From IMG/VR virus record IMGVR_UViG_3300030294_000003: a DNA stretch of 64,000 bases, one strand, 5' to 3'. Below are positions 31,596-62,947 of this stretch, one piece after another. The position numbers and the translations under genes are program-made. Each line of letters starts with the position of its first letter. Position 1 is the first letter of the stretch. The notes under the pieces were generated by a model. That model was not told where the DNA came from. It saw only the letters and a list, made by a program, of their open reading frames with translations, and made no database searches. This DNA comes from a virus (taxonomy: Duplodnaviria > Heunggongvirae > Uroviricota > Caudoviricetes).

Positions 31596-32423
31596 ATGAA
31601 AAAAGTATTTTCGATTATTTTTCTAACTGTATTAATGTTTACAATGAACAGTTGCTATCGGGTTTCACCAAATGCAGGTGAAGAGAGTGTGTTAGTGTAT
31701 AAACCTATGATTTTTGGTGATGGTGGGGTTGATACTACTCCTATCCCAACAGGTTCTATTTGGTGTGTTGTAACTACAGATCATTATGAATTTCAGATTA
31801 CACCAACTACCATTACCGAAGATTTTAAGAATATGATTCCATCGGATAATACACCTGTTTCCTTTTCAGTTTATTTGAAAGTCCAAATACAACAAGGTAA
31901 AACACCGTATTTATATCAAAATTTTGGTGCTAAGTGGTATGAACACAGCCTACAGGCAACATTTAGAACGATGGTTAGAGATAAGGCAAGTGCTTTTAAA
32001 ATGTTTGACTTGGCAAGTAAACGAGACATTTCATCTAAATTAGAAAGTGATATTTTCAAAGACTTATCGGCATACGCTAAAAAATTAAATATTCCTGTCA
32101 AAATTCTACAAGTTTCAATCGGTGCAATTACACCACCTGAACAAGTATTAACTGAAACAAAATTAACAGCAGCACAAAATCAAAGTGTATTAACCCAAAA
32201 TGCAAGGGCTACAGCCGAGCTTTCAAGAAAACAAGCCGAAATAAATAAAGCTATTGCTGATAAATCATACCAAAATCAAATGGGTATGAGTGTTAATGAA
32301 TATCTTCACCTAAGGCAACTTGAAATTGAAAAGGAAAAAGTTGAGTTAATTAAAGATCATGATAATGTTACCATTATATTCGGTGGTGGGTCAGGAGTAC
32401 CAATGACATATCCAGTAAAATAA
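31596..32423 (+). CDS. putative lipoprotein with SPFH/band-7-like C-terminal region
   Basis: 275 aa. The N-terminal signal peptide ends in a lipobox (LMFTMNSC). The C-terminal Ala/Gln-rich coiled coil (TAAQNQSVLTQNARATAELSRKQAEINKA) resembles the helical region of HflK/C, stomatin and prohibitin proteins. Cassette P37 is upstream. Confidence 0.45.
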   Translation: MKKVFSIIFLTVLMFTMNSCYRVSPNAGEESVLVYKPMIFGDGGVDTTPIPTGSIWCVVTTDHYEFQITPTTITEDFKNMIPSDNTPVSFSVYLKVQIQQGKTPYLYQNFGAKWYEHSLQATFRTMVRDKASAFKMFDLASKRDISSKLESDIFKDLSAYAKKLNIPVKILQVSIGAITPPEQVLTETKLTAAQNQSVLTQNARATAELSRKQAEINKAIADKSYQNQMGMSVNEYLHLRQLEIEKEKVELIKDHDNVTIIFGGGSGVPMTYPVK

Positions 32424-39062: not shown

Positions 39063-39491
39063 ATGGAAGACATTTTTAGAATAGTTACAAAAGCATTTGG
39101 TAATAAAGTTGATAAGGGTGGAAGTCCATATGTTTACCATCTAAATAGGGTTGCCGATAAAGTGATGGTCTATTATAGCGAAGATTATGAGTTAAAAGAA
39201 GCTGCTTTTTGTTATGATCTTTTGGAAGACATAAAAGGTTGGACACCTGAAAAGTTGGGTGAATATGTAAGTCCTCGTGTTGTTAATTTAGTTAGTATTT
39301 TAACGCATAAAGAATATGAACCATATAAAGATTATATTGATAGGGTTGCAATGGATAAGGATGCTATTAAGATTAAATTAGCTGACTTAGAGGACAATAT
39401 GGATATTACAAGATTACCTGAATTGACTGAAAAGGACATTGTGCGTTTAAAGAAATACCACAAGTACTACATTTACTTAAAAAATTTATAG
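39063..39491 (+). CDS. HD-domain protein, SpoT/Mesh1-like (p)ppGpp-hydrolase fold (HD dyad replaced by YD)
   Basis: 142 aa. GGSPYVYHLNRVA matches the GePYixHplxVA block of RelA/SpoT hydrolases. AAFCYDLLEDI aligns to AALLHDvvEDT, but with Tyr in place of His. KLADLEDNMDITRL matches KLADRLHNMRTL. Confidence 0.55.
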   Translation: MEDIFRIVTKAFGNKVDKGGSPYVYHLNRVADKVMVYYSEDYELKEAAFCYDLLEDIKGWTPEKLGEYVSPRVVNLVSILTHKEYEPYKDYIDRVAMDKDAIKIKLADLEDNMDITRLPELTEKDIVRLKKYHKYYIYLKNL

Positions 39492-39494
39492 AAT

Positions 39495-39713
39495 ATGAAA
39501 GTAACACAAAACGGGCTACAGGAATTTCCAGAAGAGAGTGGTTTAATAATGGATGATATTATTAATTTAATGAATTTAATAAATAAAAAAGATGGCCATT
39601 TGGGTGACATAGTTTCTTGTATTAGAACGACATGTTCAAGCCTGAAATTAAAAGCAGATAAATTATCAAAAATATTTGAAGAACAAAAATATGAGACTAA
39701 TAAAAATAACTAA
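39495..39713 (+). CDS. hypothetical protein
   Basis: 72-aa ORF. Confidence 0.45.
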   Translation: MKVTQNGLQEFPEESGLIMDDIINLMNLINKKDGHLGDIVSCIRTTCSSLKLKADKLSKIFEEQKYETNKNN

Positions 39714-40456: not shown

Positions 40457-40786
40457 ATGGAAACAACATTTAGTACGATTAATTTTATTGAACCTACGGA
40501 TGAGTTCAAAAAAGAATTTTTCGATGTTTTGAATATTAAGGAATTTTTTAATATGGACTTAATTGCTTATTCTTTTTATTATAAAGATGTTTTAAAAGAT
40601 AATAACCTTAAATTAGATGAACTCGAAAGATCTTTTAATGGGTATGTAAAATTTTATAATTTACAGTATTCATTATTAGAAATCTATGAAATGTTCAAAG
40701 ATTGGACTGAAAATGATTTAACTAATTTCATGGCTTATTATAGACCAATTTTTTTAAAAAATAATAAAGATACAAATGAACAATAA
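40457..40786 (+). CDS. hypothetical protein
   Basis: 109-aa ORF with cassette P42 upstream. Confidence 0.55.
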   Translation: METTFSTINFIEPTDEFKKEFFDVLNIKEFFNMDLIAYSFYYKDVLKDNNLKLDELERSFNGYVKFYNLQYSLLEIYEMFKDWTENDLTNFMAYYRPIFLKNNKDTNEQ

Positions 40787-41108
40787 AGAATTTATATTAT
40801 GTGCAGCTATTCATTATAAAAATGGTGCTGAAACAACCGTATATGGGGTTGAAGATGGTGTAATTGTTTGTGGGAGAAGACATGGAGATTGTTATGCTAT
40901 TTTGAAAGGTATATTGAATATTGGTGATGATTATAATATTGATGATTTACCCGATAGAGATGAGCAGGGATTTTTAACATCTGAAAATAGGTTTGTTTCA
41001 AGACGTGAAGCGTGGTTTATAGCTAAAAAAAATAAACAAATTAGATTTGGGTTAGAAGCAACAGAGAATGGAGAATTTAGTGAATTAATTTCCGAAAACT
41101 TATATTAA
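40776..41108 (+). CDS. hypothetical protein
   Basis: 110-aa ORF. Confidence 0.5.
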   Translation: MNNKEFILCAAIHYKNGAETTVYGVEDGVIVCGRRHGDCYAILKGILNIGDDYNIDDLPDRDEQGFLTSENRFVSRREAWFIAKKNKQIRFGLEATENGEFSELISENLY

Positions 41109-44027: not shown

Positions 44028-44876
44028 ATGGGAAAAATTAACAGAACACAACTTGAAATTGAAAAACTACTTTTAGAACCTTTTAAAGTTGGTGAGGTAG
44101 TTAGTGTAGACGAACGTTTGGTAGGTAATAGAGGATCTTCCAAAACATCTGCTAAAATTATTGAGATTGATGGTGATGAAGTTGTTTTGGAAGCGTTCGG
44201 TGGTTATAAAGATAAAAAAACGTATAAAGTTCACATATCCAACTTAGGAAAAAGTATTTATTACGTTGGTTATTCCCCGATGGTAAGACCATCATATCGC
44301 TTAGAAACCATTAATTTCTCACTTGAATCAATTGTTTTTGATTGTGGTTTTGATAGACGTGAAAGAAAATTTAAACCAGATGAAAATATTGGTGAAATTA
44401 CTGTACCAGAATTGAATTGGAACCCATATGTAATTCAATCTGATGGTTCAAAATTTTATTATCAACGAGAGTTTGTTTGGACATTGGAGGATAAACAATC
44501 ATTTATTGATTCAATTTATAACAACATATCTTTAGGTAAGGTTATTTTAAGGGAACGTGGTTTTGAATGGAATAGACAACAGGCATTACTTGGAAATACG
44601 GTGTTTGGTTATAAAGATATTGTTGATGGAAAACAACGTTTGAACTGCATTCTATCGTTTTTACAGGATGAATTTCCAGATTCAAAAGGATTTTATTATT
44701 CTGAATTTTCAAAAGCATCCCAAAACCAATTTTTAAATCACCAATTGCTTGGCTATGCAAAATTAGATGAAAACGCATCTGATAAAGATGTTATCGATTG
44801 TTTCCTTAGAACAAACTTTTCAGGAGTACAAATGAGTAAAGAGCACTTAGAGTATATTAAGACTATTAAATTATAA
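44028..44876 (+). CDS. DUF262-like ParB/Srx-fold NTPase domain protein
   Basis: 282 aa. The C-terminal half has YQREFVW followed by IVDGKQRLNCILSF, matching the DUF262 hallmark xQRxxVW and (I/V)DGQQRLT. The N-terminal ~140 aa are unassigned, and no HNH/DUF1524 partner was seen. Confidence 0.55.
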   Translation: MGKINRTQLEIEKLLLEPFKVGEVVSVDERLVGNRGSSKTSAKIIEIDGDEVVLEAFGGYKDKKTYKVHISNLGKSIYYVGYSPMVRPSYRLETINFSLESIVFDCGFDRRERKFKPDENIGEITVPELNWNPYVIQSDGSKFYYQREFVWTLEDKQSFIDSIYNNISLGKVILRERGFEWNRQQALLGNTVFGYKDIVDGKQRLNCILSFLQDEFPDSKGFYYSEFSKASQNQFLNHQLLGYAKLDENASDKDVIDCFLRTNFSGVQMSKEHLEYIKTIKL

Positions 44877-48525: not shown

Positions 48526-50109
48526 ATGAAAAATTTAAATGTGAAACAAGACTTGAAAGAATTGGTTACGCAAATTGACGTAACTCCAAATGTGAATTTT
48601 TTAACAACATTAAGAAATTCTGGTTATAATAATTATACGGCTATTGCTGATATAATTGATAACTCGTTAGATACAGATGTAAACTCTAAAAACGTTAAGG
48701 TTCAAATTAAGAGAACTAAAGATGATTACGAGTTTATTAAAATTTGTGATGATGGGTGTGGTATGAATATTGAAACTCTTAATGAGGCCTTTAAGCTTGG
48801 TGCGTTAATGGGTAAAAATAAAGAATTTGATCTTGGTTCGTATGGGACTGGGTTAAAGGCAGCGGCTCTATCATTGGGTCGTAAATTTGTTGTTAAAACT
48901 AAAGCGTCAGATGACGATTTTTATATCGCTACATATGATTTGGATGTTATGATAATGACAAATACATTTGAAATTCCTGTTACAATAGGTAGTTGGGAAG
49001 AATATAGTGAATTTAAACGTGAGACTGGAAGTGATATAGGTACAGTTGTGATAGTATCTAAATTAGATAGAATAACAAATGCTAATATTACTGTATTCAA
49101 GGACATATTAAAAGGTAAACTTGGATTGTTTTATAAGTACTTTATTGATGAATTAAATATTAATTTATTTGTTAATAATGAATATATAAAAAGTGTTGAT
49201 CCAATGCTTAGAAATGAACCATATACTACATGTCTAACATCGAATGAAAAATTTGAGTATAATGAGTCTGAATTTAGATTCAGCGTATTTAATATTGAGT
49301 TCGTTAGCCAATCACTTTCAAATGAAGTAAACCGAAGTTCAGCTTATTCTGGGTTGTATGTTTATAGAAACAATCGTTTAGTTGGGAGTAGCTTGGATTT
49401 AGGTATTGTTGGTAAGGTTGGTGATGGTCACTTAAATGGTCTTAGAATTGAACTATTTTGTAGTGGTGATAGTGATAACTTATTTGGCTCAACCTTTAAT
49501 AAGATTATACACGAAAAAGATAAAAATGAAATCGATCAAGGGTTCAGAGATGTATGTAAAGGTAAACTTCGTGGTTATATTAAGACAGTAAAAAACAACG
49601 AAGATTCTAAAACAACCAACGAAAAGATTAGCGATGATGTTAAAAGTGAAATGGCTGAAATAGTCAAATCAATTAACCAAAATCCATTTATTGGAATAAA
49701 AAAGGAACGTGGGAAAAATGAGCAACATAAAGATATTATTCCAGCAACAACAGAAAAAGAAAAGAAGGAACCAGTTGACGATAGGATAAAAAACAAACTT
49801 GCTCCTCGAAAAAGAGAAGATAAATTTGCTGATTATCGGTTTACTAAGCTTGGTGAAAATGGGTTAATCTTTAAATCGGTTAAGGAACACGGACTATATA
49901 TTATAGAGATAAATCAAGAGCATCCATTTTGGATTAGATTTTTAAATAATGCAACTCTCCAAACGAAAGATGTAATTATTAAAATGTTATTTTCGTTAGG
50001 TGTATCTTTAGAAGAAACCGAATATTATAATAACCCTGAAAAGGAAGACTTATTGAATGAGTATTTTATTAAAGTAAGTGAACGACTAAGGAAGTTTATT
50101 ATATATTAA
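48526..50109 (+). CDS. GHKL-superfamily ATPase, MORC-like (HATPase_c_3-type)
   Basis: 527 aa with a Bergerat fold: N-box IADIIDNSLDT, G1 box DDGCGMN, and G2 box GSYGTGLKAAALSLG. The G-x-x-G-x-G-x-K-x6-G pattern is the MORC/paraMORC variant. A Lys-rich linker and a C-terminal domain follow. The gene has its own upstream promoter-like TACATTTG and a downstream intrinsic terminator. Confidence 0.7.
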   Translation: MKNLNVKQDLKELVTQIDVTPNVNFLTTLRNSGYNNYTAIADIIDNSLDTDVNSKNVKVQIKRTKDDYEFIKICDDGCGMNIETLNEAFKLGALMGKNKEFDLGSYGTGLKAAALSLGRKFVVKTKASDDDFYIATYDLDVMIMTNTFEIPVTIGSWEEYSEFKRETGSDIGTVVIVSKLDRITNANITVFKDILKGKLGLFYKYFIDELNINLFVNNEYIKSVDPMLRNEPYTTCLTSNEKFEYNESEFRFSVFNIEFVSQSLSNEVNRSSAYSGLYVYRNNRLVGSSLDLGIVGKVGDGHLNGLRIELFCSGDSDNLFGSTFNKIIHEKDKNEIDQGFRDVCKGKLRGYIKTVKNNEDSKTTNEKISDDVKSEMAEIVKSINQNPFIGIKKERGKNEQHKDIIPATTEKEKKEPVDDRIKNKLAPRKREDKFADYRFTKLGENGLIFKSVKEHGLYIIEINQEHPFWIRFLNNATLQTKDVIIKMLFSLGVSLEETEYYNNPEKEDLLNEYFIKVSERLRKFIIY

Positions 50110-59687: not shown

Positions 59688-60719
59688 ATGAAAAAACTTT
59701 GCAAATTCTCGGACATAGGTCAATTTAGGGAAATTTATTCAACAATTAAACATAGAACGCAATACATTGGTAAGGATGAAAATGGGGACTGTATGTATGA
59801 TACAACAATTCCTCTTCCAATTATCAAAGTTTCAGGTACAATAAAAATTGATGGAACAAACGGAGGGATTTCAATGAATAAAAATGGTGAAATCTGGGCT
59901 CAATCAAAAGACAATATATTGACTTTAAAGAATGATAATTATAATTTTGCTTTCACGTTAGAATCAAAAAAAGATGTTTTTAAAGATCTACTAAATAAAA
60001 TTGATTTCAAAGGATATGATTACATAACTATTTTTGGTGAATTTGCAGGAAAAGGGATACAGGCTGGAATGGCCGTATGTCAGCTTCCAAGAATATTTGT
60101 TATATATGACATTAAGCGATCATATGAAGATAATTCAAAAGGTGATAATAAATATGCGCCAATAGATCAAATTAAACTATTGCGTTCACCTGAAAATGAT
60201 ATTTATAACATATATGACTTCCCAACGTTTGAAGTTGAAATTGATTTTAACGAGCCTCAGGCAGCTTTAGATAAACTAACTGAAATAACTACCCAAGTTG
60301 GTATTAAATGCCCATTTGGTGACGCTATGGGTGTTGAAGGTAGGGGAGAAGGCATAGTTTACACTTTCTTTACTGAAACTGGTGAAAAACTTAGGTTTAA
60401 AGTAAAAGCCGAAAAAAGTAAAATTTCAAAAACGAAGGAATTGGTTGCAATCGATATAGATAGAATGAATTCAATTAATGAATTTATTGAGTATGCTGTT
60501 ACTGAAAATAGATTAAACCAAGGGCTTGAAAAAATATACGGTAACGGAGTTTTGTTTATTGAGAAGATGGGTGATTTCTTGAGATGGTTAGCTAATGATA
60601 TTATTAAAGAAGAAACAGATGTTTTGATTGGGAATAATTTGGAACCAAAAGCCGTTACAGGTGGTATATCAAAAAAAGGTAGAGATTGGTTGTTGGCTAA
60701 AATAAATAATTTCGAATAG
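59688..60719 (+). CDS. ATP-dependent RNA ligase, Rnl2-like nucleotidyltransferase
   Basis: 343 aa with the covalent nucleotidyltransferase motifs. Motif I is KIDGTN (compare Rnl2 KIHGTN). Motif III is IFGEFAG. Motif IV is EGIVY. Motif V is RFKVKAEK (KxK). Confidence 0.7.
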   Translation: MKKLCKFSDIGQFREIYSTIKHRTQYIGKDENGDCMYDTTIPLPIIKVSGTIKIDGTNGGISMNKNGEIWAQSKDNILTLKNDNYNFAFTLESKKDVFKDLLNKIDFKGYDYITIFGEFAGKGIQAGMAVCQLPRIFVIYDIKRSYEDNSKGDNKYAPIDQIKLLRSPENDIYNIYDFPTFEVEIDFNEPQAALDKLTEITTQVGIKCPFGDAMGVEGRGEGIVYTFFTETGEKLRFKVKAEKSKISKTKELVAIDIDRMNSINEFIEYAVTENRLNQGLEKIYGNGVLFIEKMGDFLRWLANDIIKEETDVLIGNNLEPKAVTGGISKKGRDWLLAKINNFE

Positions 60720-61526: not shown

Positions 61527-62228
61527 ATGTTTCAAAGCCTATTATTACACATCCCCCATTCAAGTACTTACATTCCAGATTCTTTTGGAAATATTAATGA
61601 CTACACATTAATGGGAAATGTTGTTATTCAAACAGATTTATTAGTTGATGACTTATTTTACCACCCAGTAACTACAAATGTTAAAACATTAAAATTTATT
61701 TATAGTCGGTTTTATTGTGATGTGGAAAGATATTGGGATGACAAAAAAGAACCAATGTCACTAATTGGACAGGGTGTATATTATAAACAATATTCTGATG
61801 GTTCATTAATTAATAGAACCGACTCAAAGGATGATATTAAATTAGTTTACAATGAGCATCACTCAAAATTAAACTATATTTCCCAAAAACTTATTGCGGA
61901 AAATGGTTCTTGTTTAATCATTGATTGTCATTCTTTTACACCAACGAATGAAAATGAGCCAGATATATGTATTGGGGTTAATTATGATAAAAATGACCCA
62001 GGTCCTGAAACATTATGGTCTATTATAAATCATTTTATTGATAATGGGTATAAATTTAAGATAAATTATCCGTTTTCAGGATCAATATATCCATCAAAAT
62101 ATTTAAATAAAAACTTAAAATCTATTATGATTGAAGTAAATAAAAATATTTATTTGGGTAATGAGATTAAGTTTTCGAAATTAAAAAATACAATAAACGA
62201 ATTATATCATAAATTGTTAAAATATTAA
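61527..62228 (+). CDS. putative Zn-dependent amidohydrolase (N-formylglutamate amidohydrolase / AstE-AspA-like fold)
   Basis: 233 aa with LLHIPHSSTYIP, CDVERY (compare DxNR) and IDCHSF (compare DLHS), arranged as in FGase-family proteins. The assignment is tentative. Confidence 0.35.
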   Translation: MFQSLLLHIPHSSTYIPDSFGNINDYTLMGNVVIQTDLLVDDLFYHPVTTNVKTLKFIYSRFYCDVERYWDDKKEPMSLIGQGVYYKQYSDGSLINRTDSKDDIKLVYNEHHSKLNYISQKLIAENGSCLIIDCHSFTPTNENEPDICIGVNYDKNDPGPETLWSIINHFIDNGYKFKINYPFSGSIYPSKYLNKNLKSIMIEVNKNIYLGNEIKFSKLKNTINELYHKLLKY

Positions 62229-62947
62229 TGAAAAATAAACTTTCAATTGTTGCAATTTCCGACCTTCACGGGTATCTACCTGAAATAACCGAAGAAGCTG
62301 ATATAATGATCATCGGTGGGGATATTTCTCCTTTAAATATTCAACGTAATAAACCTAAAACGAAAATTTGGCTTGAAACAACGTTTCTCGAATGGGTCAA
62401 TAATTTACCAGTTAAGAAAGTATTCCTTGTGGCTGGTAATCATGATTTTGCGTTAGAGGGTTTATCTGATACTGAAAAATATTTTTTTGAAAAATTATTT
62501 GGCGGAAAACTTAAATATTTAGAAAACGAAACATTTAACCACGTTGATGATAACGGTTGTTCTTGGGTGATTTTTGGAACGCCTTATTGTCACATATTTA
62601 GTTCTGGTTGGGTATTTATGATACCAGATGATAATATGTATTTCAAATTTCTGAAAATTCCAGATGAAGTTGATATAATTATTTCTCATGACCCGCCTTA
62701 TGGTGTTGGTGAAGTTGATGTTATTTTGGAACAATATAATTTAAATGAACCAATCACGCATATTGGAAATAAACCTTTAGCAAAAAGATTGCAACAAATC
62801 AAATATAAATTTCTATGCTGTGGTCATATACATAGTGGTAGCCATATACCATATGAATTTAATGGTGGAAAATGTGTAAACGTTTCGATCAAAGATGAAG
62901 ATTACCAACCAATCTATCATCCATTTTATTATACATTAGAAAAATGA
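62228..62947 (+). CDS. calcineurin-like metallophosphoesterase
   Basis: 239 aa with the MPP motifs ISDLHG, GGD, VAGNHD, SHDPP and GHIHSG. Confidence 0.75.
   Translation: MKNKLSIVAISDLHGYLPEITEEADIMIIGGDISPLNIQRNKPKTKIWLETTFLEWVNNLPVKKVFLVAGNHDFALEGLSDTEKYFFEKLFGGKLKYLENETFNHVDDNGCSWVIFGTPYCHIFSSGWVFMIPDDNMYFKFLKIPDEVDIIISHDPPYGVGEVDVILEQYNLNEPITHIGNKPLAKRLQQIKYKFLCCGHIHSGSHIPYEFNGGKCVNVSIKDEDYQPIYHPFYYTLEK

Follow-up and report, generated by a model that had tools for sequence, protein, structure and literature searches.

A large-phage homologue of the Aph1/PbcSpo-type small alarmone hydrolases with tyrosine in place of the dyad histidine

Main finding

A 142-residue protein encoded in the window, as we call the whole 64-kb stretch of viral DNA that was analysed, is, by its sequence and its predicted structure, a small hydrolase of the Aph1/PbcSpo type and not of the SpoT/Mesh1 type, and it carries tyrosine at the position where its relatives have the histidine of the metal-binding HD dyad. 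We regard the locus as a new addition, probably an impaired one, to a family of counter-defence enzymes that is already known from phages. The explanation that we prefer, with some reserve, is that the gene is a recent and tolerated allele with partial or complete loss of function in a clonally spreading phage, and that it would not represent a designed, Tyr-type class of enzymes. The homology, the fold, the mapping of residues, the orthology, the rarity of Tyr and the clonality are shown by the analysis; both the effect of the tyrosine on catalysis and the counter-defence role of the protein in this phage are what we infer.

The gene and its active-site residues

The gene and the residues discussed below are located in the window as follows.

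39063..39491, + strand: open reading frame of 142 aa with an ATG start, homologue of the Aph1/PbcSpo family of small alarmone hydrolases, HD-domain fold
39111..39113, + strand: Asp17 (Aph1 D24), specificity residue in place of the guanine-stacking Arg of Rel/SpoT (PMC10083569)
39138..39140, + strand: His26 codon, first metal ligand of the H...HD...D set (Aph1 H33), kept, invariant column
39213..39218, + strand: dyad codons TAT GAT, Tyr51-Asp52, where the family has His-Asp (Aph1 H53-D54)
39225..39230, + strand: Glu55-Asp56, the ED pair of HDxxED (Aph1 E57-D58), kept, invariant columns
39342..39344, + strand: Arg94 (Aph1 R96), signature residue
39375..39413, + strand: KLADLEDNMDITR block, K105-R117, mapped onto Aph1
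39453..39458, + strand: Lys131-Tyr132 (Aph1 K133-Y134), signature residues

The reading frame is as an earlier note on this DNA had described it, and the two blocks quoted there are found in the translation at residues 19–31 (GGSPYVYHLNRVA) and 105–118 (KLADLEDNMDITRL). Within the KLADLEDNMDITR block, D108 (Aph1 D110) is the last metal-ligand Asp, N112 (Aph1 N114) is the ribose contact, and D114 and R117 (Aph1 D116 and R119) are the adenine-specificity residues, with the residue roles taken from PMC10083569. The tyrosine of Aph1 that corresponds to Tyr132 of the query, Y134, has been proposed to contact the pyrophosphate (PMC10083569). The catalytic and metal positions H26, E55/D56, K105, D108, D111, N112 and R117 are all intact, Asp52 of the dyad is kept, and the mapping of columns to Aph1 and to the family bears out the earlier statement that the remaining metal ligands are present.

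The codon of Tyr51 is TAT (39213–39215). Tyr51 falls in the column of the dyad His in three independent alignments (HMMER against 7SMG, pairwise MAFFT, and a MAFFT alignment of 121 sequences). The exchange of His for Tyr at the dyad, which had been read from the sequence before, therefore holds.

Sequence and fold point to Aph1

In a phmmer search of the PDB chain sequences, the best match is 7SMG, a '(p)ppApp hydrolase' from Bacteroides caccae (E 3.4e-23), of which residues 9–142 align with residues 2–140 of the query at 58 identical positions, while the SpoT and Rel chains reach E values of 0.01–0.2. The PHROG match is phrog_990, 'metal-dependent phosphohydrolase' (E 4e-38), and Pfam HD_4 scores 15.5 bits on the query, under its gathering score of 27.2. 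The matches to 7SMG and phrog_990 confirm that the protein has an alarmone-hydrolase (RSH hydrolase/HD_4) domain, as had been claimed. The query has 135 database homologues, and there are 8190 related cluster representatives at E<=1e-3.

A structure prediction, which the earlier note had suggested as a check, was made with AF2 from a 70-sequence alignment; the model of the 142 residues is all-helical, with a mean pLDDT of 95.9 and a pTM of 0.90. When it was compared with the PDB by Foldseek, four chains of 7SMG came out on top, with TM scores of 0.87–0.88 and an rmsd of 1.6–1.7 Å over 140–141 columns. Mesh1, RelH, PaSAH and the Rel/SpoT hydrolase domains rank after 7SMG, with target-normalised TM scores (TMt) of 0.17–0.68; the TMt values for Mesh1, PaSAH and RelH are 0.56–0.68, as against 0.88/0.88 for 7SMG, so that the best fold is not that of SpoT or Mesh1. 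As modelled, the query would have a compact HD fold of about eight helices without the C-terminal helix 9 of the dimeric SAHs, and a compact fold without helix 9 has been described for Aph1 (PMC10083569).

Six residues are conserved in Aph1-like enzymes and not in (p)ppGpp hydrolases, namely D24, R96, D116, R119, K133 and Y134 of Aph1, and the exclusion of ppGpp by Aph1 is governed by D24 and R119 (PMC10083569). The query has all six, as D17, R94, D114, R117, K131 and Y132. The guanine-recognition residues (R43, R44 and S45 of TtRel) are absent from the query, which has D17, K18 and G19 as compared with D24, K25 and A26 in Aph1. The substrates of Aph1 are pApp, ppApp and pppApp but not ppGpp; the enzyme depends on Mg2+ or Mn2+ and hydrolyses at a rate of about 478 per minute (PMC10083569).

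The best match in both sequence and fold to 7SMG, the complete signature and the kinship with gp220 of Salmonella phage PVP-SE1 (35% identity over 139 aa, E 5e-26) together lead to the Aph1/PbcSpo-type assignment. The label 'SpoT/Mesh1-like' in the earlier note is thus correct as to the superfamily, but the closest group is Aph1/PbcSpo, and the matches to SpoT, Rel and Mesh1 are weak in both searches. In the Aph1/PbcSpo family, the HD dyad is needed for function, and the motif is reported for every one of more than 10,000 jackhmmer matches (PMC10083569); the query lacks the intact dyad and reads YD. Because of this YD, the query is an evolutionary member (orthologue) of the family, but its sequence gives no ground for annotating it as a working (p)ppApp hydrolase.

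The tyrosine arose on a terminal branch

The four closest proteins in a database of 5.8 billion sequences, P0002–P0005, are 66–73% identical to the query and have 142 aa each, and their dyad regions read AAFCHDLLEDI or AAFLHDLLEDI (FCHD/FLHD). One of these sisters, P0002, is encoded on contig L003, which shows synteny with the window: 17 further genes match in conserved order at 37–77% protein identity, and the hydrolase, with 72.5% identity, is among the best conserved. Since HD is found in the syntenic P0002 and in all four sisters, the tyrosine arose on the terminal branch to the query phage, by a single C-to-T transition from CAT to TAT. Tyr is what results when the first base of a His codon changes from C to T, the most common mutation of such a codon, which makes Tyr a mutationally likely replacement.

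At least 23 contigs in ENA, Logan and JGI assemblies encode the identical protein, and three assemblies are 100% identical to the window in their DNA (1.1 kb by direct alignment; 4713 and 4464 nt by blastn). The tyrosine is therefore not a read or assembly error; it is real, and it is fixed in the sampled clone, the sample being one without time depth. The cluster of the query at >=90% identity consists of one sequence and holds no His allele. As all copies are identical, the age of the mutation is not datable from variation within the population, and the mutation is either recent or tolerated.

Tyr at the dyad is exceptional

In the MAFFT alignment, the dyad column has His in 118 of 121 rows, and the three rows without His belong to the query, to the database copy identical to it and to one further protein, P0105. 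Among 150 representatives at 50% identity, drawn from the 8190 related clusters, His is found in 154 of 159 aligned domains and Tyr in none (0/159); Lys occurs in two of the 159, both of which are degenerate N-terminal domains of two-domain proteins. Scans with a DNA pattern of the motif pair, validated on the window with a match that starts at 39213, cover only genes with the exact downstream DLxDNMD motif and compare CAT with TAT, plus TAC in the viral contigs only, with CAT as the one His codon covered. Within this scope, the CAT-Asp pattern was found in 91 IMG/VR viral contigs, and TAT-Asp and TAC-Asp in none; in species-representative bacterial genomes there were at least 120 CAT-Asp loci and no TAT-Asp locus. 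A metagenome scan for TAT carries little weight, as it did not recover the query phage and came with no count of His versions for comparison, and the one TAT-Asp match that it gave (L098) was discarded, since its translation is an unrelated protein matched by chance. No literature precedent was found for Tyr at the HD dyad.

The other carrier of Tyr, P0105, comes from one 3.5-kb contig (L006:2956-3480). Its ED pair has become ND and its counterpart of R94 is W, and 6 of 29 highly conserved columns are changed in it, as compared with 2 of 29 in the query. A protein that is 85% identical to it, P0271, has kept the dyad (LLHDVLED), while P0273, of the same clade, reads KD..DY. Synteny between L006 and the window was considered, since both have upstream genes of 115 and 74 aa, and was rejected because the neighbours show no similarity. 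Judged by these sequences, the tyrosine of P0105 is an independent occurrence in a degenerate singleton.

The 'distinct subclass' of Tyr-substituted variants proposed in the earlier note is hence not borne out: apart from a single clone of phage, Tyr is found only in an unrelated, degenerate singleton, His is kept by the closest relatives of each, and the sequence comparison does not support a Tyr-dyad subclass of alarmone hydrolases. It shows, rather, losses at the catalytic site that are scattered over the tips of this phage-borne family.

Two further groups of relatives may be mentioned here. The clade of P0105 and P0273 comprises small Aph-like phage proteins of 170–174 aa with repeated loss of catalytic residues (YD..ND; KD..DY), and its relatives at 85% and at 54–64% identity retain HD..ED. 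The proteins P0210, P0267, P0122, P0175, P0256 and P0261 are two- or multi-domain relatives of 207–441 aa. In P0210 and P0267, the dyad His of the N-terminal Aph-like domain is replaced by Lys and the first His is lost, with a C-terminal domain that looks canonical; judged by its sequence, such an N-terminal domain would amount to a pseudo-domain built into the protein, in a family with a tetrameric founder.

The query allele shows no decay

Apart from the dyad, the protein is well preserved. Conservation in the family reaches 90% or more in 29 columns, and the query agrees with 27 of them; the departures are L50C and H51Y, and L50C is common to the query and three of the four HD-bearing sisters. 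On a profile built without the query clade, the query scores 159.4 bits and the sisters 155.5–165.9 bits; an in-silico Y51H reversion adds 5 bits on the family profile. To 54 outgroup sequences, the query is on average 42.8% identical and the sisters are 40.2–42.9% identical, and this parity argues that there is no rate acceleration in the query. The comparison of rates was made by relative rate and profile score, the nucleotide identity of ~71% to the sister phage being such that synonymous sites are saturated.

Compared with the unanimous sisters, 12 residues are unique to the query. Besides Tyr51, the sole query-specific change near the active site is Lys58 (39234–39236), two residues past the ED pair, where all four sisters have Pro and 1 of 115 other members has Lys.

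An old pseudogene was considered and is ruled out by the intact conserved columns, the profile score and the unaccelerated rate. The options left, as far as they can be read from the sequences, would be a recent mutation or a still-working protein under selection.

A weakened metal site as the preferred explanation

The gene is the positional orthologue, in an AT-rich large uncultured phage, of the compact Aph1/PbcSpo small alarmone hydrolases that are common in phages. In the canonical enzyme, one Mg2+ or Mn2+ is held by the H...HD...D set and the 3′-pyrophosphate cut from pApp, ppApp and pppApp, with the ED pair and the conserved Arg, Lys, Asn and Tyr positioning the substrate (PMC10083569; PMC8177086). 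Related SAHs also cut the 3′-pyrophosphate from pyrophosphorylated tRNA ends, and such hydrolysis undoes the action of host toxSAS toxins, be they (p)ppApp-synthesising or tRNA-modifying. In the query phage, one C-to-T transition has swapped a direct metal ligand, His, for Tyr and spared the fold, the ED pair, the six specificity residues and the three remaining ligands; most likely, the metal site would thereby be weakened or mis-shaped, and the hydrolase activity strongly reduced or lost.

The neutral hydroxyl of Tyr binds Mn2+ or Mg2+ poorly and has a longer reach than the imidazole of His. Given such a poor ligand, and given that ligand mutants are dead, we judge a weakened site with less or no hydrolysis to be the likeliest outcome. 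The HD-to-AA mutant of Aph1 has lost its protection (PMC10083569), and substitutions of the ligands in the HD phosphatase YfbR are inactivating (PMC8177086). Several points count against an impaired allele. The published mutants of RSH hydrolases at the dyad are Ala substitutions or changes of the Asp, and not His-to-Tyr. Mg2+ favours oxygen donors, for which reason the Tyr hydroxyl might partly substitute for the imidazole. Moreover, the query allele shows no decay in its sequence, and the occurrence of the phage with the Tyr allele on at least 23 contigs from several sources indicates that the change is at least not strongly deleterious.

These points lead to an alternative that we hold to be possible, although doubtful, namely that the enzyme tolerates Tyr51 and is active. 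The metal would then be bound through H26, D52 and D108, with the hydroxyl of Tyr51 or a water as the fourth ligand, and the protein would hydrolyse (p)ppApp or 3′-pyrophosphorylated tRNA, perhaps with an altered metal preference or a lower kcat, and would still work in counter-defence. The unaccelerated rate and the intactness of all other catalytic and specificity residues would be expected of such an enzyme; by a rough estimate, an early loss of function on a branch of ~15% divergence would leave 27 columns unchanged with a probability of 0.85^27, roughly 1%. In addition, the allele is fixed in every sampled copy, Aph1 is active with Mg2+ (PMC10083569), and Tyr does ligate metal in the HD-domain proteins PhnZ and TmpB, but from another loop and to iron (PMC8177086). 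However, all copies belong to one clone (100% DNA identity), and a very recent mutation would explain the intactness equally well. The published ligand mutants are inactive, and the lack of Tyr in several hundred other members suggests that it is normally selected against.

We think it rather unlikely, although the pristine state of every other functional residue would allow it, that the Tyr51 protein is a selected functional variant, whether as a Tyr-assisted, oxygen-rich hydrolase that prefers Mg2+ or Fe and has changed kinetics or substrate range, or as a non-cleaving trap for adenosine alarmones or 3′-pyrophosphorylated tRNA that a giant phage would use against toxSAS-type defence.

A neofunctionalised pseudo-enzyme, which would capture (p)ppApp, (p)ppGpp or modified tRNA as a sponge or trap and leave its ligand uncleaved, or would bind and block a host toxSAS, seems improbable from the sequence comparison. 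It would agree with the retention of all substrate-recognition residues alongside the loss of a catalytic ligand, and degenerate Aph-like domains do recur, in P0105, in P0273 and in the N-terminal pseudo-domains of P0210 and P0267. Phage nucleotide sponges exist for other signals, which also speaks for such a role. On the other hand, no diverged lineage conserves the tyrosine, there are no co-varying second-shell changes save the unexplained K58, and no toxin or synthetase partner gene was found in the 64 kb. Stoichiometric capture would presumably also be a poor defence, since the (p)ppApp toxins are catalytic and deplete ATP as well (PMC11782079), which would render sequestration ineffective.

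It is very unlikely that the protein is a (p)ppGpp hydrolase of the SpoT/Mesh1 type aimed at the stringent response. The superfamily is the same, the matches to Rel and SpoT, although weak, do exist, and the fold resembles those of Mesh1 and the SAHs with query-normalised TM scores (TMq) of 0.75–0.81; nevertheless, Aph1 is by far the better match in both sequence and fold, and the query, with its 142 aa and a TMt of only 0.61–0.68, lacks the further C-terminal helix found in Mesh1 and the SAHs. The guanine-stacking Arg-Arg of TtRel is D17-K18 in the query and R117 is present, an arrangement that excludes ppGpp in Aph1, and 10 of 12 Aph homologues assayed showed no ppGpp hydrolysis (PMC10083569). 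A sequencing or assembly artefact in a phage that really has CAT can practically be dismissed, for although the difference is a single base, the same protein occurs on all those contigs from independent assemblies and sources, and the DNA is identical in three assemblies.

We therefore return to the impaired allele. Should it be inactive, as we expect, it would be one case of sporadic loss of counter-defence in phage populations, with limited general interest; should it be active, the 'invariant' HD dyad of RSH enzymes would be more tolerant than assumed, and the allele would be a natural experiment on the plasticity of the metal site. In either event, phage small alarmone hydrolases are a recognised but little-studied counter to toxSAS and (p)ppApp toxicity, and the locus adds to them a giant-phage member of the Aph1/PbcSpo type and a natural one-residue mutant of a metal ligand. 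For annotation, we recommend the label of an Aph1-like (p)ppApp hydrolase homologue, and not of a SpoT/ppGpp hydrolase, with activity not to be assumed.

Genomic setting

The window has a G+C content of 26.9%. Its genes, about 157 in number, are short and lie almost without exception on the + strand; no tRNA genes were found in its 64 kb. Few of the genes have recognisable domains, among them the following.

31596-32420: Band_7
44028-44873: GmrSD_N / NsnA-like (Pfam E 8e-13; PADLOC NsnA E 8e-8)
48526-50106: MORC-type HATPase / MzaB-like (HATPase_c_3 E 7.5e-20; PADLOC MzaB E 4.6e-23)
59688-60716: RNA ligase
61527-62225: FGase
62228-62944: Metallophos (calcineurin-like phosphoesterase)
within the gene block of the window: LigT-type phosphoesterase (2'-5' RNA ligase/LigT)

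The element is a block of early or accessory genes from a large uncultured phage. Contigs with the identical protein reach 263 kb, and a 710-aa neighbour is closest to proteins of an uncultured 462-kb phage and of Cellulophaga phages. The host is possibly a member of the Bacteroidota. A megablast of the window from 30 to 50 kb against GenBank phages gave no match, and a search of IMG/VR for related loci with the query gave pattern matches only, with no confirmed relative.

The 110-aa reading frame at 40776-41108 is assigned to Pfam T4_Y16D in the precomputed annotation of an identical contig (L002), and is one of the few signs that hint at a T4-like kinship. The GmrSD_N and MORC-type HATPase proteins of the accessory block resemble bacterial defence components, and there is a PADLOC match to PDC-S10 (E 4.6e-37) among the 150 window ORFs. 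Neither Pfam nor PADLOC detected a RelA_SpoT synthetase or toxSAS domain among these 150 ORFs, and tblastn with the query and with Aph1 found no second copy of the hydrolase in the 64-kb window.

A 72-aa reading frame without a family match (39495-39713) starts 4 nt past the stop of the hydrolase gene. It is the sole immediate neighbour retained beside the HD orthologue (L003:6431-6643, 48% identity), and from this arrangement a functional link to the hydrolase is possible. The sister phage also has a PNK-type kinase/phosphatase (L003:9375-10274), which the window lacks at that position. Taken together, the RNA ligase, the Metallophos and LigT proteins, the PNK of the sister phage and the SAH homologue suggest a counter-defence theme of RNA or tRNA repair.

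Comparison with known systems

The closest characterised system is Aph1, adenosine 3′-pyrophosphohydrolase 1, from a prophage of Bacteroides caccae (7SMG; PMC10083569), which is 41% identical to the query over the whole length, with a chain sequence of 149 aa compared with 142 aa. The two share the compact helical HD fold, the ED pair and the H...(H)D...D scaffold save one residue, the dyad His, which is H53 in Aph1 and Tyr51 in the query. Aph1 is a homotetramer (PMC10083569). Its gene adjoins those of the MuF-Apk2 toxin and the Tis1 immunity protein, whereas the gene of the query lies in an accessory block of what looks like a lytic giant phage. A neighbouring (p)ppApp synthetase toxin is missing from most Aph1 homologues (PMC10083569), and its absence here is therefore not disqualifying.

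The stand-alone SAH of the PbcSpo type from phage PVP-SE1 neutralised every toxSAS assayed (Jimmy et al., PMC7229694), so that phage hydrolases of this family are indeed, as the earlier note stated, already known to counter toxSAS toxins. Like the query, it is a stand-alone small hydrolase of a large phage, PVP-SE1 being virulent. Judging from its annotation, gp220 would be the exact construct assayed in that work; it differs from the query in its canonical dyad (VLHDVLED) and in its length of 169 aa. The importance of hydrolysis in such systems is illustrated by the antitoxin ATfaRel, in which D54A abolished neutralisation, the HD Asp and hydrolysis hence being required (PMC7229694). Some SAHs strip the 3′-pyrophosphate that FaRel2-type toxins add to tRNA (bioRxiv 10.1101/2021.04.30.441581).

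Mesh1, PaSAH, RelH and the hydrolase domains of SpoT and Rel have the HD_4 superfamily fold and the catalytic layout in common with the query. They differ from it in being only about 20–26% identical, 30–50 aa longer and equipped with an additional C-terminal helix, and they carry the guanine-recognition residues that the query does not have. A precedent within the superfamily for the loss of catalysis with the fold kept is the pseudo-hydrolase domain of RelA (PMC8012599). The pseudo-domain of RelA, however, is ancient and conserved and belongs to a multidomain protein, whereas the query has a single mutation at the tip of the tree, in a protein that stands alone.
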